From Escherichia phage AV104, in the sequence record OR352935.1: a stretch of DNA of 43,102 nucleotides, one strand, 5' to 3'. Numbering within the stretch: position 1 is the stretch's first letter; the number at the start of each line of letters is the position of its first letter. This document shows positions 4,642-42,371 of this stretch, piece after piece. The position numbers and the translations under genes were made by a program. Under the pieces are notes generated by a model that saw nothing but the letters and a program-made list of their open reading frames with translations, did not search any database and had not been told where the DNA came from.

Positions 4642-4680
4642 TTTAGCAAACCTCTATCTTCATTAAACAGCACCAATAAC

Positions 4681-4710
4681 TGAATAGTACCCTATTATAT
4701 CGGGGCATGT
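4681..4710 (-). promoter_or_regulatory. promoter/operator motif (TGAATAGTACCCTATTATA) for gene 4327-4641
   Basis: minus-strand reading gives TATAATAGGGTACTATTCA, the same motif found in front of the early genes. Confidence 0.4.
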
Positions 4711-4778
4711 AAACTATTTATTTACGTATTCCAGTTATTCCCCTCAATTGTAAATGTTGGAATAAACTATTCGAATAG

Positions 4779-4807
4779 TTGACTTTTCACTGAAAATATG
4801 CTAAGCT
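4779..4807 (+). promoter_or_regulatory. sigma70-like promoter (TTGACT-17 bp-TAAGCT with extended TG), copy 1
   Basis: TTGACT at 4779-4784, 17 bp spacer, TGcTAAGCT; near-identical to 35881-35909; preceded by perfect palindrome ACTATTCGAATAGT (4766-4779). Confidence 0.5.
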
Positions 4808-4814
4808 CCACCTG

Positions 4815-4925
4815 AGCTTGTGAAGTATGAACAAGCGACCGCGGCGCGGGCAGGTAACGGAGCGGGACGTAAGTCCTGAGTGTAGTTACGCTGACGCGTT
4901 CGGAAGGGCCATACTCTATTGCTTG
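4815..4925 (+). ncRNA. candidate structured RNA element, copy 1 (paralogue of 35917-36026)
   Basis: about 110 nt conserved between two loci with shared blocks (GCGACCGCGG, GAGTGTAGTT, TTCGGAAGGGCC) and differing but complementary hairpin arms; no ORF longer than 9 codons; downstream terminator at 4988-5016. Confidence 0.3.
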
Positions 4926-4987
4926 TGTAAAAAGTAACTGGTTTACTGAGATTACGCCGTTTCTATGTTTAAATGATAAGGCCTAGC

Positions 4988-5031: not shown

Positions 5032-5418
5032 ATGAATCTTAAAGCAACTGTCGTAGCAGGAGCATGTTTCATCATCCTGTTATACACGCACGGCTACTAT
5101 CAATACCGCAGCGGCTGGAACGGAGGCAGGGCTAATCTAGTTTCGCAGCAACAGCAGAAAGCACAGGCTGAGTTAGCGAAGAAAACACAACGGCAGCAGC
5201 AGGACGAATCAAAGGCCGCCGCCGCTGACAACGAAGGCAAGACGAAATCAGAGGTGATTACCCGTGAAGTCGTTAAGTACATTAAAACGCCTGGCCGCAG
5301 CGTGTGCACTTTCGACGATGCTCGCGTCCTGCTCAAGTCCCGCGCCGTCGCAAACGCCAATTCCATCCCCGGATACGACGATGATGCAGCCGCCATGCAA
5401 ACTGGCCGCGCCAAGTAG
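5032..5418 (+). CDS. i-spanin (Rz-like)
   Basis: 128 aa; N-terminal transmembrane segment (VVAGACFIILLY) then Gln/Ala/Lys-rich coiled-coil region; overlapping out-of-frame lipoprotein ORF. Confidence 0.6.
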   Translation: MNLKATVVAGACFIILLYTHGYYQYRSGWNGGRANLVSQQQQKAQAELAKKTQRQQQDESKAAAADNEGKTKSEVITREVVKYIKTPGRSVCTFDDARVLLKSRAVANANSIPGYDDDAAAMQTGRAK

Positions 5419-5527
5419 CGATGCCGATGAGGATTTAGCCATTGACGTTCAGAACACAGAATGTGTACGGCAACTGCGTCTGAAAGTGTTCATGTTGCAG
5501 GATTACGTGAGGAATATTCTGGAATAG
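5264..5527 (+). CDS. o-spanin (Rz1-like outer-membrane lipoprotein), overlapped arrangement
   Basis: GTG start with GAGGTGA SD; signal peptide ending in lipobox LASC; Pro-rich mature region; starts inside the i-spanin gene in another frame and extends beyond it. Confidence 0.6.
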   Translation: MKSLSTLKRLAAACALSTMLASCSSPAPSQTPIPSPDTTMMQPPCKLAAPSSDADEDLAIDVQNTECVRQLRLKVFMLQDYVRNILE

Positions 5528-35880: not shown

Positions 35881-35909
35881 TTGACTTTTACTTAAAAATA
35901 TGCTAAGCT
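35881..35909 (+). promoter_or_regulatory. sigma70-like promoter (TTGACT-17 bp-TAAGCT with extended TG), copy 2
   Basis: near-identical to 4779-4807. Confidence 0.5.
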
Positions 35910-35916
35910 TCACTGA

Positions 35917-36026
35917 GCTTGTGAGATATCGCAAGCGACCGCGGAGCGGCAGGGAACGCAACGCGTGCCATTAGGCACTTGAGTGTAGTTCCGCTGGCGC
36001 TTTCGGAAGGGCCAAAGTCTATTGTT
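35917..36026 (+). ncRNA. candidate structured RNA element, copy 2
   Basis: paralogue of 4815-4925 with compensatory hairpin (GUGCC-AUUA-GGCAC here versus GGGAC-GUAA-GUCCU in copy 1); followed by a large hairpin at 36091-36150. Confidence 0.3.
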
Positions 36027-36090
36027 AATCCCGCCTAAATACCCAAGTCACTGATAATTAAAAGTTTCTATAGTTGCCGTAAGCAAGGTG

Positions 36091-36150
36091 GAGAGTACTT
36101 CACTCCGCTGGGGTGGGCTAACGCCCACCCACTGCGTTGCGTACTCTTTT
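36091..36150 (+). terminator. complex hairpin / possible terminator
   Basis: GGGTGGGC-TAAC-GCCCACCC inner stem, outer GAGAGTAC/GTACTCTT pairing, then TTTT. Confidence 0.35.
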
Positions 36151-36189
36151 AAGAAACGAAAGAATCACAACGGCAACGTAACTTTTCTC

Positions 36190-36218
36190 TTGCACACCCC
36201 AACATAATAGGATACTAT
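36190..36218 (+). promoter_or_regulatory. early promoter (TTGCAC-17-TACTAT, spacer contains CATAATAGG)
   Basis: conserved with 37632-37660 and minus-strand 13736-13768; followed by conserved leader TTATCGAAACGAGA..GAGGAG. Confidence 0.45.
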
Positions 36219-36252
36219 TCACTTATCGAAACGAGACAGAGGAGTGAGGGTT

Positions 36253-37624: not shown

Positions 37625-37631
37625 AATTTAC

Positions 37632-37660
37632 TTGCACACACAGATATAATAGACTACTAT
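37632..37660 (+). promoter_or_regulatory. early promoter (TTGCAC-17-TACTAT, spacer contains TATAATAG)
   Basis: same architecture and leader (GTTATCGAAACGAGAGGAG) as 36190-36243. Confidence 0.45.
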
Positions 37661-37691
37661 TCAGTTATCGAAACGAGAGGAGAGAGAGAAG

Positions 37692-37829: not shown

Positions 37830-37977
37830 TTTCGTGGTGCAAGCAATGTACGCTGAGGAAATGGCAAAAAGTATGTTAGAGCAAACATTACATTTCGCTA
37901 AGCTGCAAGGGTTCGACGTACAGACAGTAGGCGACGAAATAGTATTGACCGAGAAGTCGGAGAACGGCGATGAGTAA
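37822..37977 (+). CDS. small hypothetical protein (51 aa)
   Basis: overlapping start inside the previous stop region. Confidence 0.3.
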   Translation: MNNFVVQAMYAEEMAKSMLEQTLHFAKLQGFDVQTVGDEIVLTEKSENGDE

Positions 37978-38335
37978 CAATGACGCAGTAATCGAGTTCC
38001 TGTTTAACCAACTACAGCAGCAGCTAACGAACAACCCATACAAGCAACAGTGCGAAGACCTGGCGCATGAGGTGCAGTCACTTAAGAATCAGTTACGCGA
38101 TATGTCGGAGCTGGTGGATGCGCTACTGGGGACGATAACGTTAATGAACGGGAAATCTAGTTGCCGTAAAGAAGACGCGCAGGAATGCTACCATAACTGG
38201 CGATTCGTCGGGGGTAAGTCGCCCGCCGTATGTATTAATTGCGGTGTGACTAAAGCCGAGGAATGTAAGCACGATTGGTACTTTTACGATAAAGGCGCCT
38301 CGATGATGTGCAAGAAATGTGGGCTGAAGAAATGA
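37970..38335 (+). CDS. zinc-ribbon protein, paralogue A (coiled-coil N-terminus, two C-x-H-x-W...C-x2-C-G units)
   Basis: ECYHNWRFVGGKSPAVCINCGVTK and ECKHDWYFYDKGASMMCKKCGLKK. Confidence 0.5.
   Translation: MSNNDAVIEFLFNQLQQQLTNNPYKQQCEDLAHEVQSLKNQLRDMSELVDALLGTITLMNGKSSCRKEDAQECYHNWRFVGGKSPAVCINCGVTKAEECKHDWYFYDKGASMMCKKCGLKK
38160..38187 (+). repeat. direct DNA repeat shared by zinc-ribbon paralogues A and B (GTTGCCGTAAAGAAGACGC..A.GAATG)
   Basis: second copy at 38809-38836; both encode SGCRKEDAQEC. Confidence 0.6.
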
Positions 38336-38535
38336 CCAGCATCCTCTTTATCTGGGTACTGTCCGCAGGCCAGATGCAACTGGCGGCAGCAGAAACGTTT
38401 TATTCGATGGAGGCGTGCCAGTCAGCGGCACGCGCCGCAGAGAACGCGCACTTCCTGTTTCAGGGCGACAAGCCCAACGATTCAGAGGTACGCGCTATCT
38501 GCTCACCCAAGCGACTTGGTAAACAGGAGAAGTGA
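38332..38535 (+). CDS. small protein with N-terminal hydrophobic segment
   Basis: ATG overlaps upstream stop; MTSILFIWVLSAGQMQLAAA signal-like N-terminus. Confidence 0.35.
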   Translation: MTSILFIWVLSAGQMQLAAAETFYSMEACQSAARAAENAHFLFQGDKPNDSEVRAICSPKRLGKQEK

Positions 38536-38909
38536 TTATGGTACAGAGATATAACGCTTCATATAACGACTATTATGAAAACGATGCCGGTGAGTTTGTA
38601 AGTTATGAAGACTATGTGAAACTCGAAGCAGATTTTAAGGCGTACAAAGCCTCTGCTTACATGGTTGCAGAGCAGTATGCGGGGGTAATTAAGGAACTCG
38701 AAGCCGAGTTACAGAAATACAAAGACCAGTTCCCGGATTACGTCGAGTGCGCGAACTGTAGGTCAGTTACACATGTGGAAGGAGTTGAAGACGCTATGGG
38801 GCAATCCGGTTGCCGTAAAGAAGACGCCCAAGAATGTGAACACGTGTGGAATAGGTACATTGTACACCCTCACAGAAAGATATGTTTAGTATGCGGGGTG
38901 AAGGAATGA
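38532..38909 (+). CDS. zinc-ribbon protein, paralogue B
   Basis: CANCRSV...SGCRKEDAQECEHVWNRYIVHPHRKICLVCGVKE. Confidence 0.5.
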   Translation: MIMVQRYNASYNDYYENDAGEFVSYEDYVKLEADFKAYKASAYMVAEQYAGVIKELEAELQKYKDQFPDYVECANCRSVTHVEGVEDAMGQSGCRKEDAQECEHVWNRYIVHPHRKICLVCGVKE

Positions 38910-39199
38910 CACTTGCAACTGACATCCTGAAACGAAGCGGCATTGCGCCGCTGTCACCGAGAGCTAAAACACAGATATACAAGCGCCGAGGTAACGCGCT
39001 GTACCCCGAGATTCAGGCCAGACGCAAAGCTGTCCGCGCCTGTGGATTCCAGAACGGGAAGGCCGTGAATCTCGGTGAGTTTAAAACACAGGAACGCGCA
39101 GCTATCGCTAATCGGCTATTTAATTACTGGAAATCGCTGGGGTACGATGATATTCCGACGAAACCGCAGAGACGGCAATACATCTGGAGACACAAATAA
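38906..39199 (+). CDS. AP2-like DNA-binding protein (putative)
   Basis: NGKAVNLGEFKTQERAAIANRLFNYW resembles an AP2-type strand-helix core; ATGA coupling. Confidence 0.35.
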   Translation: MTLATDILKRSGIAPLSPRAKTQIYKRRGNALYPEIQARRKAVRACGFQNGKAVNLGEFKTQERAAIANRLFNYWKSLGYDDIPTKPQRRQYIWRHK

Positions 39200-39229
39200 A
39201 CCGTTATTAGGATAATTCCTACCCGTGGT

Positions 39230-39269
39230 ATCCTCCAGTTACTGCATACTTAATACGCACCTGGAGGAT
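39230..39269 (+). promoter_or_regulatory. hairpin sequestering the holin Shine-Dalgarno
   Basis: perfect 9-bp stem ATCCTCCAG / CTGGAGGAT with 22-nt loop; the 3' arm contains the GGAGGA SD located 6 nt before the TTG start at 39275. Confidence 0.45.
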
Positions 39270-39274
39270 TCATC

Positions 39275-39583
39275 TTGGATAAATTTACTGAAACAGTGAC
39301 GGGCTGGCTTCTCGCTGCCGCACTCGCCGGAGGGGTCATCGGACTACGACAACATAAGTCCGTTATTTCTGGCCCTATCGACGGCTTCTGCTTCATCGCT
39401 ACTGGTTTCGCCTGCGCCGTATTTGGCGCCCCTCTTGCAGCTCAATGGTTCGGTATCACGGGCGACCGTGAAATCGCTGGCCTGGGCTTTATCATCGCTA
39501 TTCTCTGGATGCCTATTTATTCCCGTCTCTCCGGTATTGTTGCCGGAGAATACATCTCACGTCGAGGAGGCCCGGATGAATGA
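39275..39583 (+). CDS. holin-like membrane protein
   Basis: 102 aa with about three hydrophobic helices; TTG start; directly upstream of a second membrane protein and the endolysin. Confidence 0.55.
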   Translation: MDKFTETVTGWLLAAALAGGVIGLRQHKSVISGPIDGFCFIATGFACAVFGAPLAAQWFGITGDREIAGLGFIIAILWMPIYSRLSGIVAGEYISRRGGPDE

Positions 39584-39848
39584 GTTATTCTGGTTCGCCG
39601 TAATGTTGGCGATGGGCGCTTCGTCCCTGTTCAACGTGTATAATGAATGTGTTGACGACGGGCTATTCGGTCGGGTGCTCTATATCCTGACTGCTATCGT
39701 CTGCGCTGCCGGATGCATCCACCTGTTACATGGCAGCATGTCGCCAACGCTGCCTGAGACATTAATCACATTAGTCGCGCTGCGCCAGATTCGTCAGGCG
39801 TGGCTGTCATACGGAGGGCATAAGCGTGTCTCGAAACATTTCAGATAA
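39576..39848 (+). CDS. second lysis-cassette membrane protein (holin/antiholin-like)
   Basis: 90 aa, two hydrophobic helices; ATG overlaps the holin stop (ATGAATGA). Confidence 0.45.
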   Translation: MNELFWFAVMLAMGASSLFNVYNECVDDGLFGRVLYILTAIVCAAGCIHLLHGSMSPTLPETLITLVALRQIRQAWLSYGGHKRVSKHFR

Positions 39849-40311
39849 TGGATTGCATTTTACCGCCGCGTTCGAGGGATTCCGTGGAACTGCGTATCGT
39901 GCTACGCCGAACGAGAAGTACCTTACCATAGGCTACGGCCACTACGGGCCGGACGTAACACCAGGTAAGACCATCACACCAGGACAGGGCTTGCTGTTAC
40001 TGAATCGCGATATGGCTAAGGCTGTAGCTGCGGTTGATGCAGCGGCACACCATTCATTAACACAGGCGCAGTTCGATGCAGTGTGTGACCTGGTGTATAA
40101 CGCGGGCGCCGGCGTGATTGCGTCTACTACGGGCACGGGTAAGGCTCTGCGTTACGGTGATATTCCGACGCTGCGGGCTAAGCTGGCGCTGTTCATCAAC
40201 CAGAACGGCAAACCGTTACTCGGCCTGCGTCGCCGTACCGCAGGCCGCCTGGCGCTGTTCGATGGTAAGCCGTGGCAAGAGGCTGAGGCTATCGGGAGGG
40301 CTGTTAAATGA
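39826..40311 (+). CDS. endolysin (phage lysozyme, GH24-like)
   Basis: 161 aa; N-terminal FEGFRGTAYRATPNEKYLTIGYGHY matches the lysozyme catalytic region pattern. Confidence 0.75.
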   Translation: MSRNISDNGLHFTAAFEGFRGTAYRATPNEKYLTIGYGHYGPDVTPGKTITPGQGLLLLNRDMAKAVAAVDAAAHHSLTQAQFDAVCDLVYNAGAGVIASTTGTGKALRYGDIPTLRAKLALFINQNGKPLLGLRRRTAGRLALFDGKPWQEAEAIGRAVK

Positions 40312-40809: not shown

Positions 40810-40961
40810 GCGAACAAGGTCAGGTAAGCCAACCGTTACGAGTAGGCCGTAAAGTCAGTCACACCCCGTTCCCTACACGCGAGGAACTGATGAAACGTAA
40901 CAGTTTCCCTGGGCCGGACAAGAACAAGTATCTCAATCGCATGTGGGGAGAGAAGAAATGA
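40806..40961 (+). CDS. small hypothetical protein (51 aa)
   Basis: ATGA coupling; also ends GEKK with the same junction sequence. Confidence 0.35.
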   Translation: MSEQGQVSQPLRVGRKVSHTPFPTREELMKRNSFPGPDKNKYLNRMWGEKK

Positions 40962-41194
40962 CTGACCGTGAATACGAAAAGATGATGGTAGAGGCTGTTA
41001 ACGGCGGCATAGACATCAGCCACGTGATGCACGTCCTGAATACTAAAATCGCTGTAGCGGAGCAAATGGTTGAGTCGCTTTATGAGACGCGCCGTGAACT
41101 GATTAACCGCTTCAACCTGAACAAACCTGCTCCTACTAACGACGATTTTGATGGCGATTACAGAAATGGTGATTTTTATGAGGGAGCAGAATAA
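40958..41194 (+). CDS. hypothetical protein
   Basis: ATG at 40958 coupled to the previous stop. Confidence 0.4.
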   Translation: MTDREYEKMMVEAVNGGIDISHVMHVLNTKIAVAEQMVESLYETRRELINRFNLNKPAPTNDDFDGDYRNGDFYEGAE

Positions 41195-41433
41195 TGCCTA
41201 AAATCACAATCGCATCACTCGAGCGTCGTATTCTGGTGCTTGAGTCAGAGAAACAGACGTTAGGCGGGCAACTGTCAATTAATGGTGAGTTTCAACTGGA
41301 GGCGTTTAAGTTGTTGCTTGATAAGTTGAAAGCGGACGAAAAGCCTTGCGAGCACGATTACTACCTACATGTGGTTGGTGGATTACATCGGGCCACGTGC
41401 ATCAAATGCGGTAAAGCGTATGGAGTCGCCTAA
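41194..41433 (+). CDS. zinc-ribbon protein, paralogue C
   Basis: coiled-coil N-terminus then CEHDYYLHVVGGLHRATCIKCGKAYG. Confidence 0.45.
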   Translation: MPKITIASLERRILVLESEKQTLGGQLSINGEFQLEAFKLLLDKLKADEKPCEHDYYLHVVGGLHRATCIKCGKAYGVA

Positions 41434-41845: not shown

Positions 41846-42078
41846 TTACCAGCATTCCGAATCTGATTAAAGAATTTGGCACGATGGCGGAGACATGCCG
41901 TCAAACAGGCATCAACGAAATGACGATTGCGAAGTACAGTAAAGACGTTAACTGTGAGCGCCATGTAATTTATAACAACCGGCTGATGACGCACGTTAAG
42001 ACAAGCCCGGTGTTATTCACGCGCCGTGGTATCACTAAAACAGAGCAACGTATTGCTAAAGAGGAGAGTGGGGAATGA
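41842..42078 (+). CDS. hypothetical protein
   Basis: ATGA coupling. Confidence 0.4.
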   Translation: MITSIPNLIKEFGTMAETCRQTGINEMTIAKYSKDVNCERHVIYNNRLMTHVKTSPVLFTRRGITKTEQRIAKEESGE

Positions 42079-42371
42079 GTGAGATGAAACCTTGCAGATG
42101 TTGTGGCATTAAACAAAGCCCGGTTGATGAAAAGAACGCTGAATACGAAACACTCGTCAGCTTAGTGCTTCAATGTGGTGATGAGAAGCAATTATTGACT
42201 CTTATCGACATTATGCGGTCCAAGATAACAACCTGTGTATCGTCGTCTGACCCTAACAAACTGCCGTACCCTGATAAAGAGTTGTGGCACGTACGAATCA
42301 TGGCTGATGCTGTTATGATTTTGCAGGATAAGTTATTAACCCGTAGTATGCGAAAGGAGGGCGGGGAATGA
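42075..42371 (+). CDS. Cys-rich hypothetical protein
   Basis: 98 aa; N-terminal CRCCGIK cluster. Confidence 0.45.
   Translation: MSEMKPCRCCGIKQSPVDEKNAEYETLVSLVLQCGDEKQLLTLIDIMRSKITTCVSSSDPNKLPYPDKELWHVRIMADAVMILQDKLLTRSMRKEGGE

Follow-up and report, generated by a model that had tools for sequence, protein, structure and literature searches.

Zinc ribbons are common nucleic-acid- or RNA polymerase (RNAP)-binding modules. Among small phage proteins, P2 Ogr and P4 Delta are zinc-binding activators of late genes, P4 Delta being built from two Ogr-like units joined covalently in tandem. Proteins of the DksA/TraR type, some of which are encoded on phages and plasmids, are also small and combine a coiled coil with a C-terminal zinc finger. 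Here, we describe three small genes of Escherichia phage AV104 (sequence record OR352935.1), all on the + strand: A (37970..38335, 121 aa), B (38538..38909, 123 aa) and C (41194..41433, 79 aa). The whole stretch of DNA analysed, 43,102 nt, is referred to as the window. Gene A encodes a helical handle, a linker and two Cys-His-Cys-Cys (CHCC) zinc-ribbon units. Gene B encodes a mosaic helical handle with a CxxC...H segment, a linker and one CHCC unit, and gene C a conserved helical handle (residues 1–47) and one CHCC unit, without the RKEDxQEC linker. Comparison with relatives revealed a cassette system that is real and previously undescribed, built on an ordinary kind of domain. We consider it probable that A, B and C are small accessory proteins in which a helical handle carries interchangeable zinc-ribbon cassettes, shuffled among relatives.

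The motif C-x-H-x-[WY]-x10-12-C-x2-C-G occurred four times in the six-frame translation of the window, confined to the open reading frames (ORFs) of A (two), B (one) and C (one). The looser pattern C.H.[WYF].{6,16}C..C matched, again in six frames, only at 38186-38242, 38264-38320, 38835-38894 and 41347-41409, against a mean of 0.07 and a maximum of one match in 100 shuffled sequences. Gene A carries the unit twice, as had been stated in a preliminary description of the sequence: unit 1 (CYHNWRFVGGKSPAVCINCG, type U0) at 38186..38245 and unit 2 (CKHDWYFYDKGASMMCKKCG, type U2) at 38264..38323. The unit of B (CEHVWNRYIVHPHRKICLVCG, type U17) lies at 38835..38897 and that of C (CEHDYYLHVVGGLHRATCIKCG), a type restricted to the C handle, at 41347..41412; all four are on the + strand. 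The preliminary description had drawn the motif with a trailing G-x-K. The core through C-x2-C-G was present in 4/4 units, and the G-x-K tail was seen only in unit 2 of A and in the unit of B.

In an alignment of 37 A homologues, 8/8 Cys/His positions of the two units were invariant or nearly so, and the loops were variable. When 35–36 divergent unit types were aligned (units with short flanks from the A and C families plus units of B and of a fourth handle, D, 19–71% identical to the first), the only invariant columns were C, H, C and C. The Gly that follows C-x2-C was nearly invariant, an aromatic residue usually stood two positions past the His, and loop length differed between types. The ligand spacing was thus kept in homologues, and the earlier claim of a Cys/His metal-binding module held. 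AlphaFold2 predicted two helices in A (residues 3–20 and 23–62; predicted local distance difference test score (pLDDT) 83–91), a disordered linker (residues 61–71; pLDDT <50) and two beta-hairpins, one in unit 1 (77–88; strands 77–80/83–88) and one in unit 2 (103–114; strands 103–107/111–114), with a pLDDT of 60–82. The same hairpins appeared in a model of the array without the handle. Scanned unit by unit, Pfam returned sub-threshold matches only, chiefly to zinc-ribbon or small zinc-binding families (A2L, TFIIB, YjdM, Nudix-N, DUF7117 and DUF5817). The description that suits the unit best, given its ligands and predicted hairpins, is that of a Cys-His-Cys-Cys zinc ribbon of minimal size whose first knuckle, C-x-H-x-aromatic, is unusual, and we infer that it binds zinc.

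The units were highly variable in type and number among relatives. In 120 A homologues we distinguished 25 unit types and 38 architectures, with 1–4 units per protein; pooling all handles (A, B, C and D) gave 34 unit clusters. Among the proteins retrieved, at least one unit was present in 142/143 of the A type, 37/116 of the B type and 63/113 of the C type. The common unit-less form of B ends in ...CANCGSVTHVEGVE, as in Escherichia phage Henuyfy11N. Unit-less C proteins have acidic/aromatic tails, such as ...EEEQKLLLSPEFDYGVDDESA or ...DEEDWVHYLQDLWQY, which alternate with the zinc unit. Handle D (40958..41194, + strand, within ORF 40943-41194; MTDREYEKMM...INRFNLNK) is followed by an acidic/aromatic tail in the window (PAPTNDDFDGDYRNGDFYEGAE), and its homologue in an IMG/VR locus (L010, 11450-11695) has a CHCC unit at the end (...INRFNLNKCEHEFDYNPKDMCGQCIKCGVQRHA).

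Pairwise comparison located the junctions. Gene A of the window and its Henuyfy11N counterpart differed by one mismatch in the first 229 alignment columns, which reach to the end of the linker codons. Past the linker, about 75 nt corresponding to unit 1 could not be aligned, and near-identity resumed at the E-E-C-x-H-D-W codons of unit 2; unit 1 was replaced by an unrelated unit in both Henuyfy11N and BUCT789. Gene B showed two differences from Henuyfy11N up to ...CACATGTGGAAG, after which the window has approximately 126 nt (linker and unit) extra before the start of the next gene. Breakpoints fall in two places, the linker and the C-x-H with which the next unit begins.

Exchange also took place between genes. 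Unit types U17, U3 and U19 were common to A-type and B-type proteins, and a two-unit cassette, U3-EWDD...-U5/U19, was found in gene A of two loci (L013 and L015) and in gene B of a 43.7-kb contig (L029), where A was intact. In a Logan contig from ERR12410852 (L028, 3001-3369), an A handle was joined to the B unit at ...EQSG|CRKEDAQEC. From the linker onward, this contig was 100% identical to the window over 440 nt (38800-39239) and 99.9% identical over the next 979 nt, and the N-terminus of A was 97% identical. Its gene A belongs to another allele, which has an additional insert module. Missing from the contig are the approximately 650 bp between the linker repeats, and with them the A units, an intervening PHROG 3766 gene and the B handle; a deletion of this kind would be expected if linker repeats like those in the window recombined. 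Linker-associated exchange was therefore observed in relatives, in agreement with the ongoing recombination suggested in the preliminary description.

We propose the following organization. Each protein would consist of a helical, probably oligomerizing N-terminal handle and at least one mini-domain of ~20–25 residues with the pattern C-x-H-x-[WYF]-loop-C-x2-C-G. The mini-domain would fold as a beta-hairpin zinc ribbon and hold one Zn through Cys-His-Cys-Cys. Units are exchanged for one another, come and go at the C-terminal ends of four or more handles, form arrays of 1–4 and also move between genes A and B. The exchange likely proceeds by homologous or microhomology recombination at short conserved coding stretches, with co-infecting or resident relatives as partners. 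Presented as heads on a handle that is presumably oligomeric, the units might serve takeover or counter-defence by binding a variable macromolecule of the host, or possibly of the phage. This last step is the most speculative one: that the units are interchangeable binding heads of dispensable accessory proteins with a takeover or counter-defence role is a suggestion that we make only tentatively. At the same position, sister alleles have an acidic/aromatic peptide tail or a small beta-domain instead of a zinc ribbon, and such alternation is easier to reconcile with interaction heads than with a fixed role in catalysis or regulation. A still stronger version, in which a pool of at least 25–34 heads is shuffled among at least four Guernseyvirinae scaffold genes as a combinatorial recognition system that tracks variable host targets (defence or takeover-relevant proteins), appears quite unlikely.

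The preliminary description had instead regarded A, B and C as true paralogues arising from recent duplication within the genome, with a DNA repeat shared by A and B as the remnant and with diversifying selection acting on the family. Some similarity between the three proteins is evident: BLASTP gave E-values of 4e-12 for A and B, 2e-5 for A and C and 2e-4 for B and C, and PHROG 6094 matched all three. The alignments with C spanned the unit only, and what A and B have in common outside their handles is the RKEDxQEC linker and the Cys-His-Cys-Cys unit. When the handle profiles of A and B were compared with hhalign, homology was not detected (probability 0.7%, E = 0.084). In the B and C families, moreover, the unit is optional, as is clear from its absence from 79/116 and 50/113 proteins, respectively. 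With unrelated handles and similarity limited to linker and unit, the genes do not appear to be whole-gene paralogues, and the reading as whole-gene duplicates was rejected.

The repeat itself was confirmed as a direct repeat of 38 nt with 87% identity and an 18-nt exact core, the strongest repeat family in the region and not a chance similarity. Its copies (38150..38187 and 38799..38836, both + strand) encode the linker in front of A unit 1, (K)SSCRKEDAQE-C, and the linker of B, (G)QSGCRKEDAQE-C, at which the chimera L028 is joined. The encoded peptides, SSCRKEDAQEC in A and SGCRKEDAQEC in B, are identical over CRKEDAQEC. In this part, 6/9 codons were identical, compared with 4.3 expected from the codon usage of the genome (P = 0.21), so that the DNA identity did not exceed what the shared peptide predicts. 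When linker codons for the same residue were paired across 18–19 distinct A genes, 33% of the pairs differed (synonymous differences per synonymous site (pS) 0.69, near saturation), and the 3/9 differing codons between A and B of the window equal a typical difference between orthologues. Codon identity at the level of chance and the high linker pS indicate that the linker copies are old, which ruled out recent duplication or gene conversion as the source of the repeat. The A/B repeat reflects an old linker whose peptide sequence has been conserved, and its length suffices for recombination to act on it. A dedicated DNA-level recombination signal was also rejected, since synonymous variation in the linker exceeded that in the N-terminal motif of A, CEDLAH..LRD (11% differing codon pairs, pS 0.23). 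Gene C lacks the linker, and the types of its unit occur on no other handle, which fits a linker that mediates exchange between A and B. The ratio of nonsynonymous to synonymous differences per site (pN/pS) was 0.03–0.10 in conserved parts of the handles, 0.56 in the first 17 codons of A, 0.16 in the linker and 0.12–0.34 in the units when compared within unit types, values that come from small samples and short segments. These are well below one, and diversifying selection by point substitution was accordingly dismissed; the diversity is combinatorial, not driven by point substitutions. Duplication within the genome is thus largely refuted, and we consider it very improbable.

A different possibility is that the proteins are regulators that bind nucleic acid: tandem ribbons would read DNA or RNA and modulate phage or host transcription or translation, with unit swaps changing the specificity. 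Late activation by P2 Ogr and P4 Delta and the reading of DNA by C2H2 arrays would be the models. Such a role would suit a zinc ribbon, the class being one that often binds nucleic acid or RNAP, and the sub-threshold matches of the units include ribbons of the TFIIB, TFIIS, A2L and RPAB4 types. The genes are also placed shortly before the lysis and late genes, with repeated sigma-70-like promoters upstream of them, and the zinc arrays are mildly basic (median net charge +3) on acidic handles. The charge of the arrays ranges, however, from −6 to +9. A regulator of conserved promoters or RNAP would be expected to be conserved, yet 38 architectures were found and B and C are often unit-less. Matches to Ogr_Delta or DksA/TraR were none and the ligand spacing differs, and the unit is also present in extracellular giant proteins. 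We regard regulation as rather unlikely. Inhibition of host factors and modulation of transcription, the functions named in the preliminary description, are conjecture, and early expression is putative. According to a further explanation, the units are neutral or stabilizing C-terminal caps, or a quasi-selfish recombining cassette, and any activity lies in the handles. That C-termini swap freely with unrelated tails and that many B and C proteins have no unit would agree with this, as would the use of the mini-domain as a generic repeat in giant secreted proteins and the fact that positive-selection signals were none. It accounts poorly for the retention of at least one unit in nearly all A-type proteins, for purifying selection that within unit types reaches beyond the ligands into the loops, and for a linker peptide that is conserved despite saturated synonymous sites. 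Neutral cassettes therefore seem unlikely, somewhat more so than regulators.

The reading of A, B and C as handles with interchangeable cassettes also has points against it. The AlphaFold2 models were of moderate confidence (mean pLDDT 73 and 69.5). In scans of curated families, no unit or protein matched above the Pfam gathering score; a profile search of the PDB with the zinc array gave 0 matches, and the best Foldseek match of the array model in the PDB (E = 2.1; BIR, NudC and TFIIB knuckles) was not meaningful. The linker had no excess conservation at the DNA level. The chimera L028 is one short-read contig, in which an assembly mis-join at the repeat is possible; the arrangement in L029 is independent of this caveat. 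The evidence comes from sequences and models, and the arguments for a binding-head or counter-defence role are limited to modularity, dispensability and genome position. The charge of the arrays fails to separate protein from nucleic-acid targets.

The handles are mosaic as well: B has several alternative internal helical segments and A has optional inserts. The A handle (37970..38152, + strand, residues 1–61) is predicted to be one long helix or coiled coil, with only sub-threshold coiled-coil matches in Pfam. A coiled-coil or helical N-terminus, as given for all three proteins in the preliminary description, is thus backed by the AlphaFold2 helices for A, and is read from sequence only for B and C. 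Within the A handle, a stretch of 51 nt (38051-38101; residues 28–44, CEDLAHEVQSLKNQLRD) showed little synonymous variation over 14–19 otherwise mosaic A genes (pS 0.23 vs. 0.69 in the linker), and many of its codons were invariant. Directly upstream of the linker, A-family proteins such as P0012, P0043 and P0058, and likewise locus L011 (5253-5822), share a recurrent insert, ...LPKGKSYVVGEHGPEQSG..., which in some A alleles is extended by ...VNCRCTQTPVPP...; its VGE.GPE motif may resemble a motif of tape-measure proteins. Another alternative module, of ~60 residues and with the approximate pattern W..W.GG.CPVP...V.....G.......W.W......I.AYRV, is inserted or appended in both A- and B-type proteins (P0042, P0242, P0327, P0386 and P0439) and is thus a cassette common to both scaffolds. 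It had no Pfam match, and Pfam scans of the alternative modules and of the giant unit-bearing proteins gave only coiled-coil noise and one fn3 domain.

The conserved core of the B handle contains C-x2-C-x4-H (38742-38774, approximately residues 71–81 of the 125-aa ORF; ECANCRSVTHV). A second metal site might be formed by these residues and the linker Cys, which lies ~13 residues further on; B alleles of the short form, ending in HVEGVE, have just three of these candidate ligands. The B core (...ELQKYKDQFPDYVECANCGSVTH...) also matched Lar_restr_allev (PF14354) weakly (E = 0.004, 17.9 bits, cut-off 28.6; relatives 14 bits). Lar-type restriction alleviation was rejected for B, as the match was sub-threshold and fell on the CxxC...H of the handle and not on the CHCC unit, so that a functional inference is unjustified.

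All three ORFs named in the preliminary description were present as described, except that the start of B was corrected. The B ORF comprises 125 aa if the GTG at 38532 is taken as the start. It almost certainly starts at the ATG at 38538 instead, because AGGAG (38525-38529) lies 8 nt upstream, homologues begin with MVQRY, and a protein of phage AV104 (P0379) is 100% identical over 123 aa. Gene A has a GGAG 8 nt upstream, so that both A and B have ribosome-binding sites of the GGAG type. The ATGs of A and C overlap the stop of the preceding ORF, and the stop of B overlaps the ATG of the next gene. Matches to PHROG profiles were obtained for A (6094, E = 1.9e-29), B (29624, E = 3.8e-24; 6094, E = 1.5e-10) and C (9023, E = 7.8e-41; 10200, E = 1.5e-20 for residues 1–47), all of them annotated as unknown function. 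In the protein database, A had 767 relatives, B 312 and C 284. With tblastn, the A family was found in 262 GenBank phage records, mostly of Salmonella and Escherichia phages and a few of Raoultella, Klebsiella, Proteus and Pseudomonas phages; the product was 'hypothetical protein' in every GenBank record among those listed. Gene B was absent from BUCT789, which points to its dispensability. Scans of A, B, C and their neighbours with Pfam, NCBIfam and PADLOC gave nothing above threshold, and none of the PADLOC anti-phage defence profiles matched A, B or C at E ≤ 1. Taken together, A, B and C are real, expressed-looking small accessory genes under purifying selection.

With its 43.1 kb, the window represents the complete, or nearly complete, genome of a Kagunavirus-type siphophage of the Guernseyvirinae. 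Among GenBank phage records, 330 matched a 1.9-kb probe around the locus, the top ones being Escherichia phages Henuyfy11N, EF2-1 and BUCT789 and several 'Kagunavirus' records. The three genes lie within a rightward block of small genes that begins past a divergent promoter region, adjoining the leftward helicase-primase and other leftward genes, and that continues through the holin and endolysin genes (39275-40311) to the terminase. They share their strand with the lysis and terminase genes and have sigma-70-like promoters upstream. One such promoter, TTGCAC-17-TACTAT, is held in a 48-nt direct repeat with 85% identity (36189-36236 and 37631-37678) and is followed by a conserved leader, TCA(C/G)TTATCGAAACGAGA. 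The genome contains the 20-mer core of this repeat two times and no more (0.02 expected). A, B and C are downstream of both copies, and ~300 nt separate the second from gene A. At the equivalent sites, the fBC-Eco01 annotation lists PHIRE 'phage promoters' 6 and 7. Scans for sigma-70 promoters and terminators gave counts no higher than the shuffled expectation. Between a promoter-like TTGACT-17-TAAGCT (~35882-35910) and the first rightward gene, a structured leader was found at 35915-36160 (−90.3 kcal/mol, z = −3.4 vs. shuffles). It contains a GC hairpin (~36112-36134) with a short U run (CUCUUUU) a few bases on, which looks like a terminator or attenuator; a Rfam scan of the whole window including this leader returned zero families. 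For the Kagunavirus K1B4, the parts of a time-course study available to us (PMC12645636) assign genes to coarse early, middle and late classes only, and per-gene expression data for the A, B and C ORFs were not found in those parts of the paper or its supplements.

Some annotations in relatives concern neighbouring or homologous genes. A 98-aa ORF at 42075-42371 (MSEMKPCRCCGIKQ...) carries the label 'zinc finger protein' in both Henuyfy11N and BUCT789. The ORF contains a C-x-C-C motif, is unrelated to the CHCC-unit proteins and is without a CHCC unit; Pfam and PHROG gave no match. In Henuyfy11N (L001), the coding sequences 4653-4928 and 5069-5428, the second of which is the A homologue, are named 'lactocepin' and 'cell division protein'. 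Pfam, NCBIfam and PHROGs gave no backing for either name, and both look like annotation artefacts.

To look beyond this phage group, 1.84 billion representative proteins were searched with a unit profile, which gave 140 matches at E ≤ 1e-3, Guernseyvirinae proteins among them. Many of the matches outside this subfamily were unrelated small proteins with 1–6 tandem units (e.g. P0266, P0286, P0299, P0317, P0363 and P0375). Three giant proteins of 2.6–4.2 thousand aa (P0245, P0270 and P0281) and a further giant protein, P0258, have 3–5 near-identical tandem CEHEW...C.KCG units near the N-terminus, and P0245, P0258 and P0281 have N-termini resembling signal peptides. The mini-domain is therefore used outside phages and probably also outside the cytoplasm. 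The remaining matches were partial, to C2H2-type repeats, and irrelevant. When the genomic context of the distant unit-bearing proteins was sought in IMG/VR, one membrane protein with a C-terminal unit was found on a 68-kb contig, and P0286 was unmatched. Foldseek with the full A model against BFVD returned uncharacterized Guernseyvirinae proteins only. As the unit occurs in many unrelated proteins, its presence by itself says nothing on function.

Small cysteine-rich accessory ORFs of phages usually stay 'hypothetical'. Here, they resolve into a defined and widespread CHCC mini-domain that has clear boundaries, a conserved linker and documented exchange between unrelated scaffolds, and for which no Pfam or NCBIfam model scored above threshold. 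With this unit, hundreds of Guernseyvirinae proteins, and many besides, can be annotated in concrete terms, and the family is also a clean case of domain-level mosaicism below the level of the gene. Near-isogenic phages supply natural variants with swapped or lost heads, which can be used directly for functional tests. If the heads bind specific targets, the locus would be a source of small modular binders and a marker of the phage-host arms race; if not, it would be an ordinary family of small zinc proteins. Were the combinatorial version true, the heads would be an intracellular-effector analogue, at the domain level, of the mosaicism of receptor-binding proteins.

The closest entries in databases are PHROGs 6094, 29624, 9023 and 10200, together with uncharacterized proteins of phages K1ind1, SE-W109, STP03 and vB_SenS-Ent1. 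By profile and fold matches these are the same proteins, and the unit, the linker and the cassette behaviour are undescribed in them. A literature search on this family of phage zinc-ribbon proteins found nothing. Like A, P2 Ogr and P4 Delta are small phage proteins of the zinc type with, in the latter, a tandem zinc unit. They differ in their C-x2-C-x22-C-x4-C ligands, lack a coiled-coil handle and are conserved regulators, whereas the family described here is hypervariable and partly dispensable. Membership in Ogr/Delta was rejected on the different ligands (C-x-H...C-x2-C) and on the lack of a Pfam Ogr_Delta match at E ≤ 1. DksA/TraR proteins have one C4 finger, CxxC-x17-CxxC, packed on a coiled-coil base, in contrast to 1–4 independent CHCC hairpins past a disordered linker; with different ligands and spacing and no match to zf-dskA_traR in Pfam, membership in this family was rejected as well. 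The beads-on-a-string arrangement, the conserved junction peptides and the gain, loss and shuffling of units recall the C2H2 arrays of eukaryotes. This is an analogy only, as C2H2 fingers have a beta-beta-alpha fold and other ligands without homology to the phage unit, and most arrays here have 1–2 units. Judged by ligand pattern and predicted hairpins, A, B and C fit in the zinc-ribbon fold group, below the thresholds of curated sequence and structure matches. Members of this group (TFIIB, TFIIS, A2L, Nudix/NudC and the N-terminal domain of YjdM (PhnA)) resemble the unit in being two-knuckle, four-ligand hairpins of ~20–30 residues with a C-x2-C-G second knuckle. Their first knuckle is C-x2-C instead of the C-x-H-aromatic of the phage unit, and they are fixed domains, whereas the phage unit is a swappable tandem cassette.

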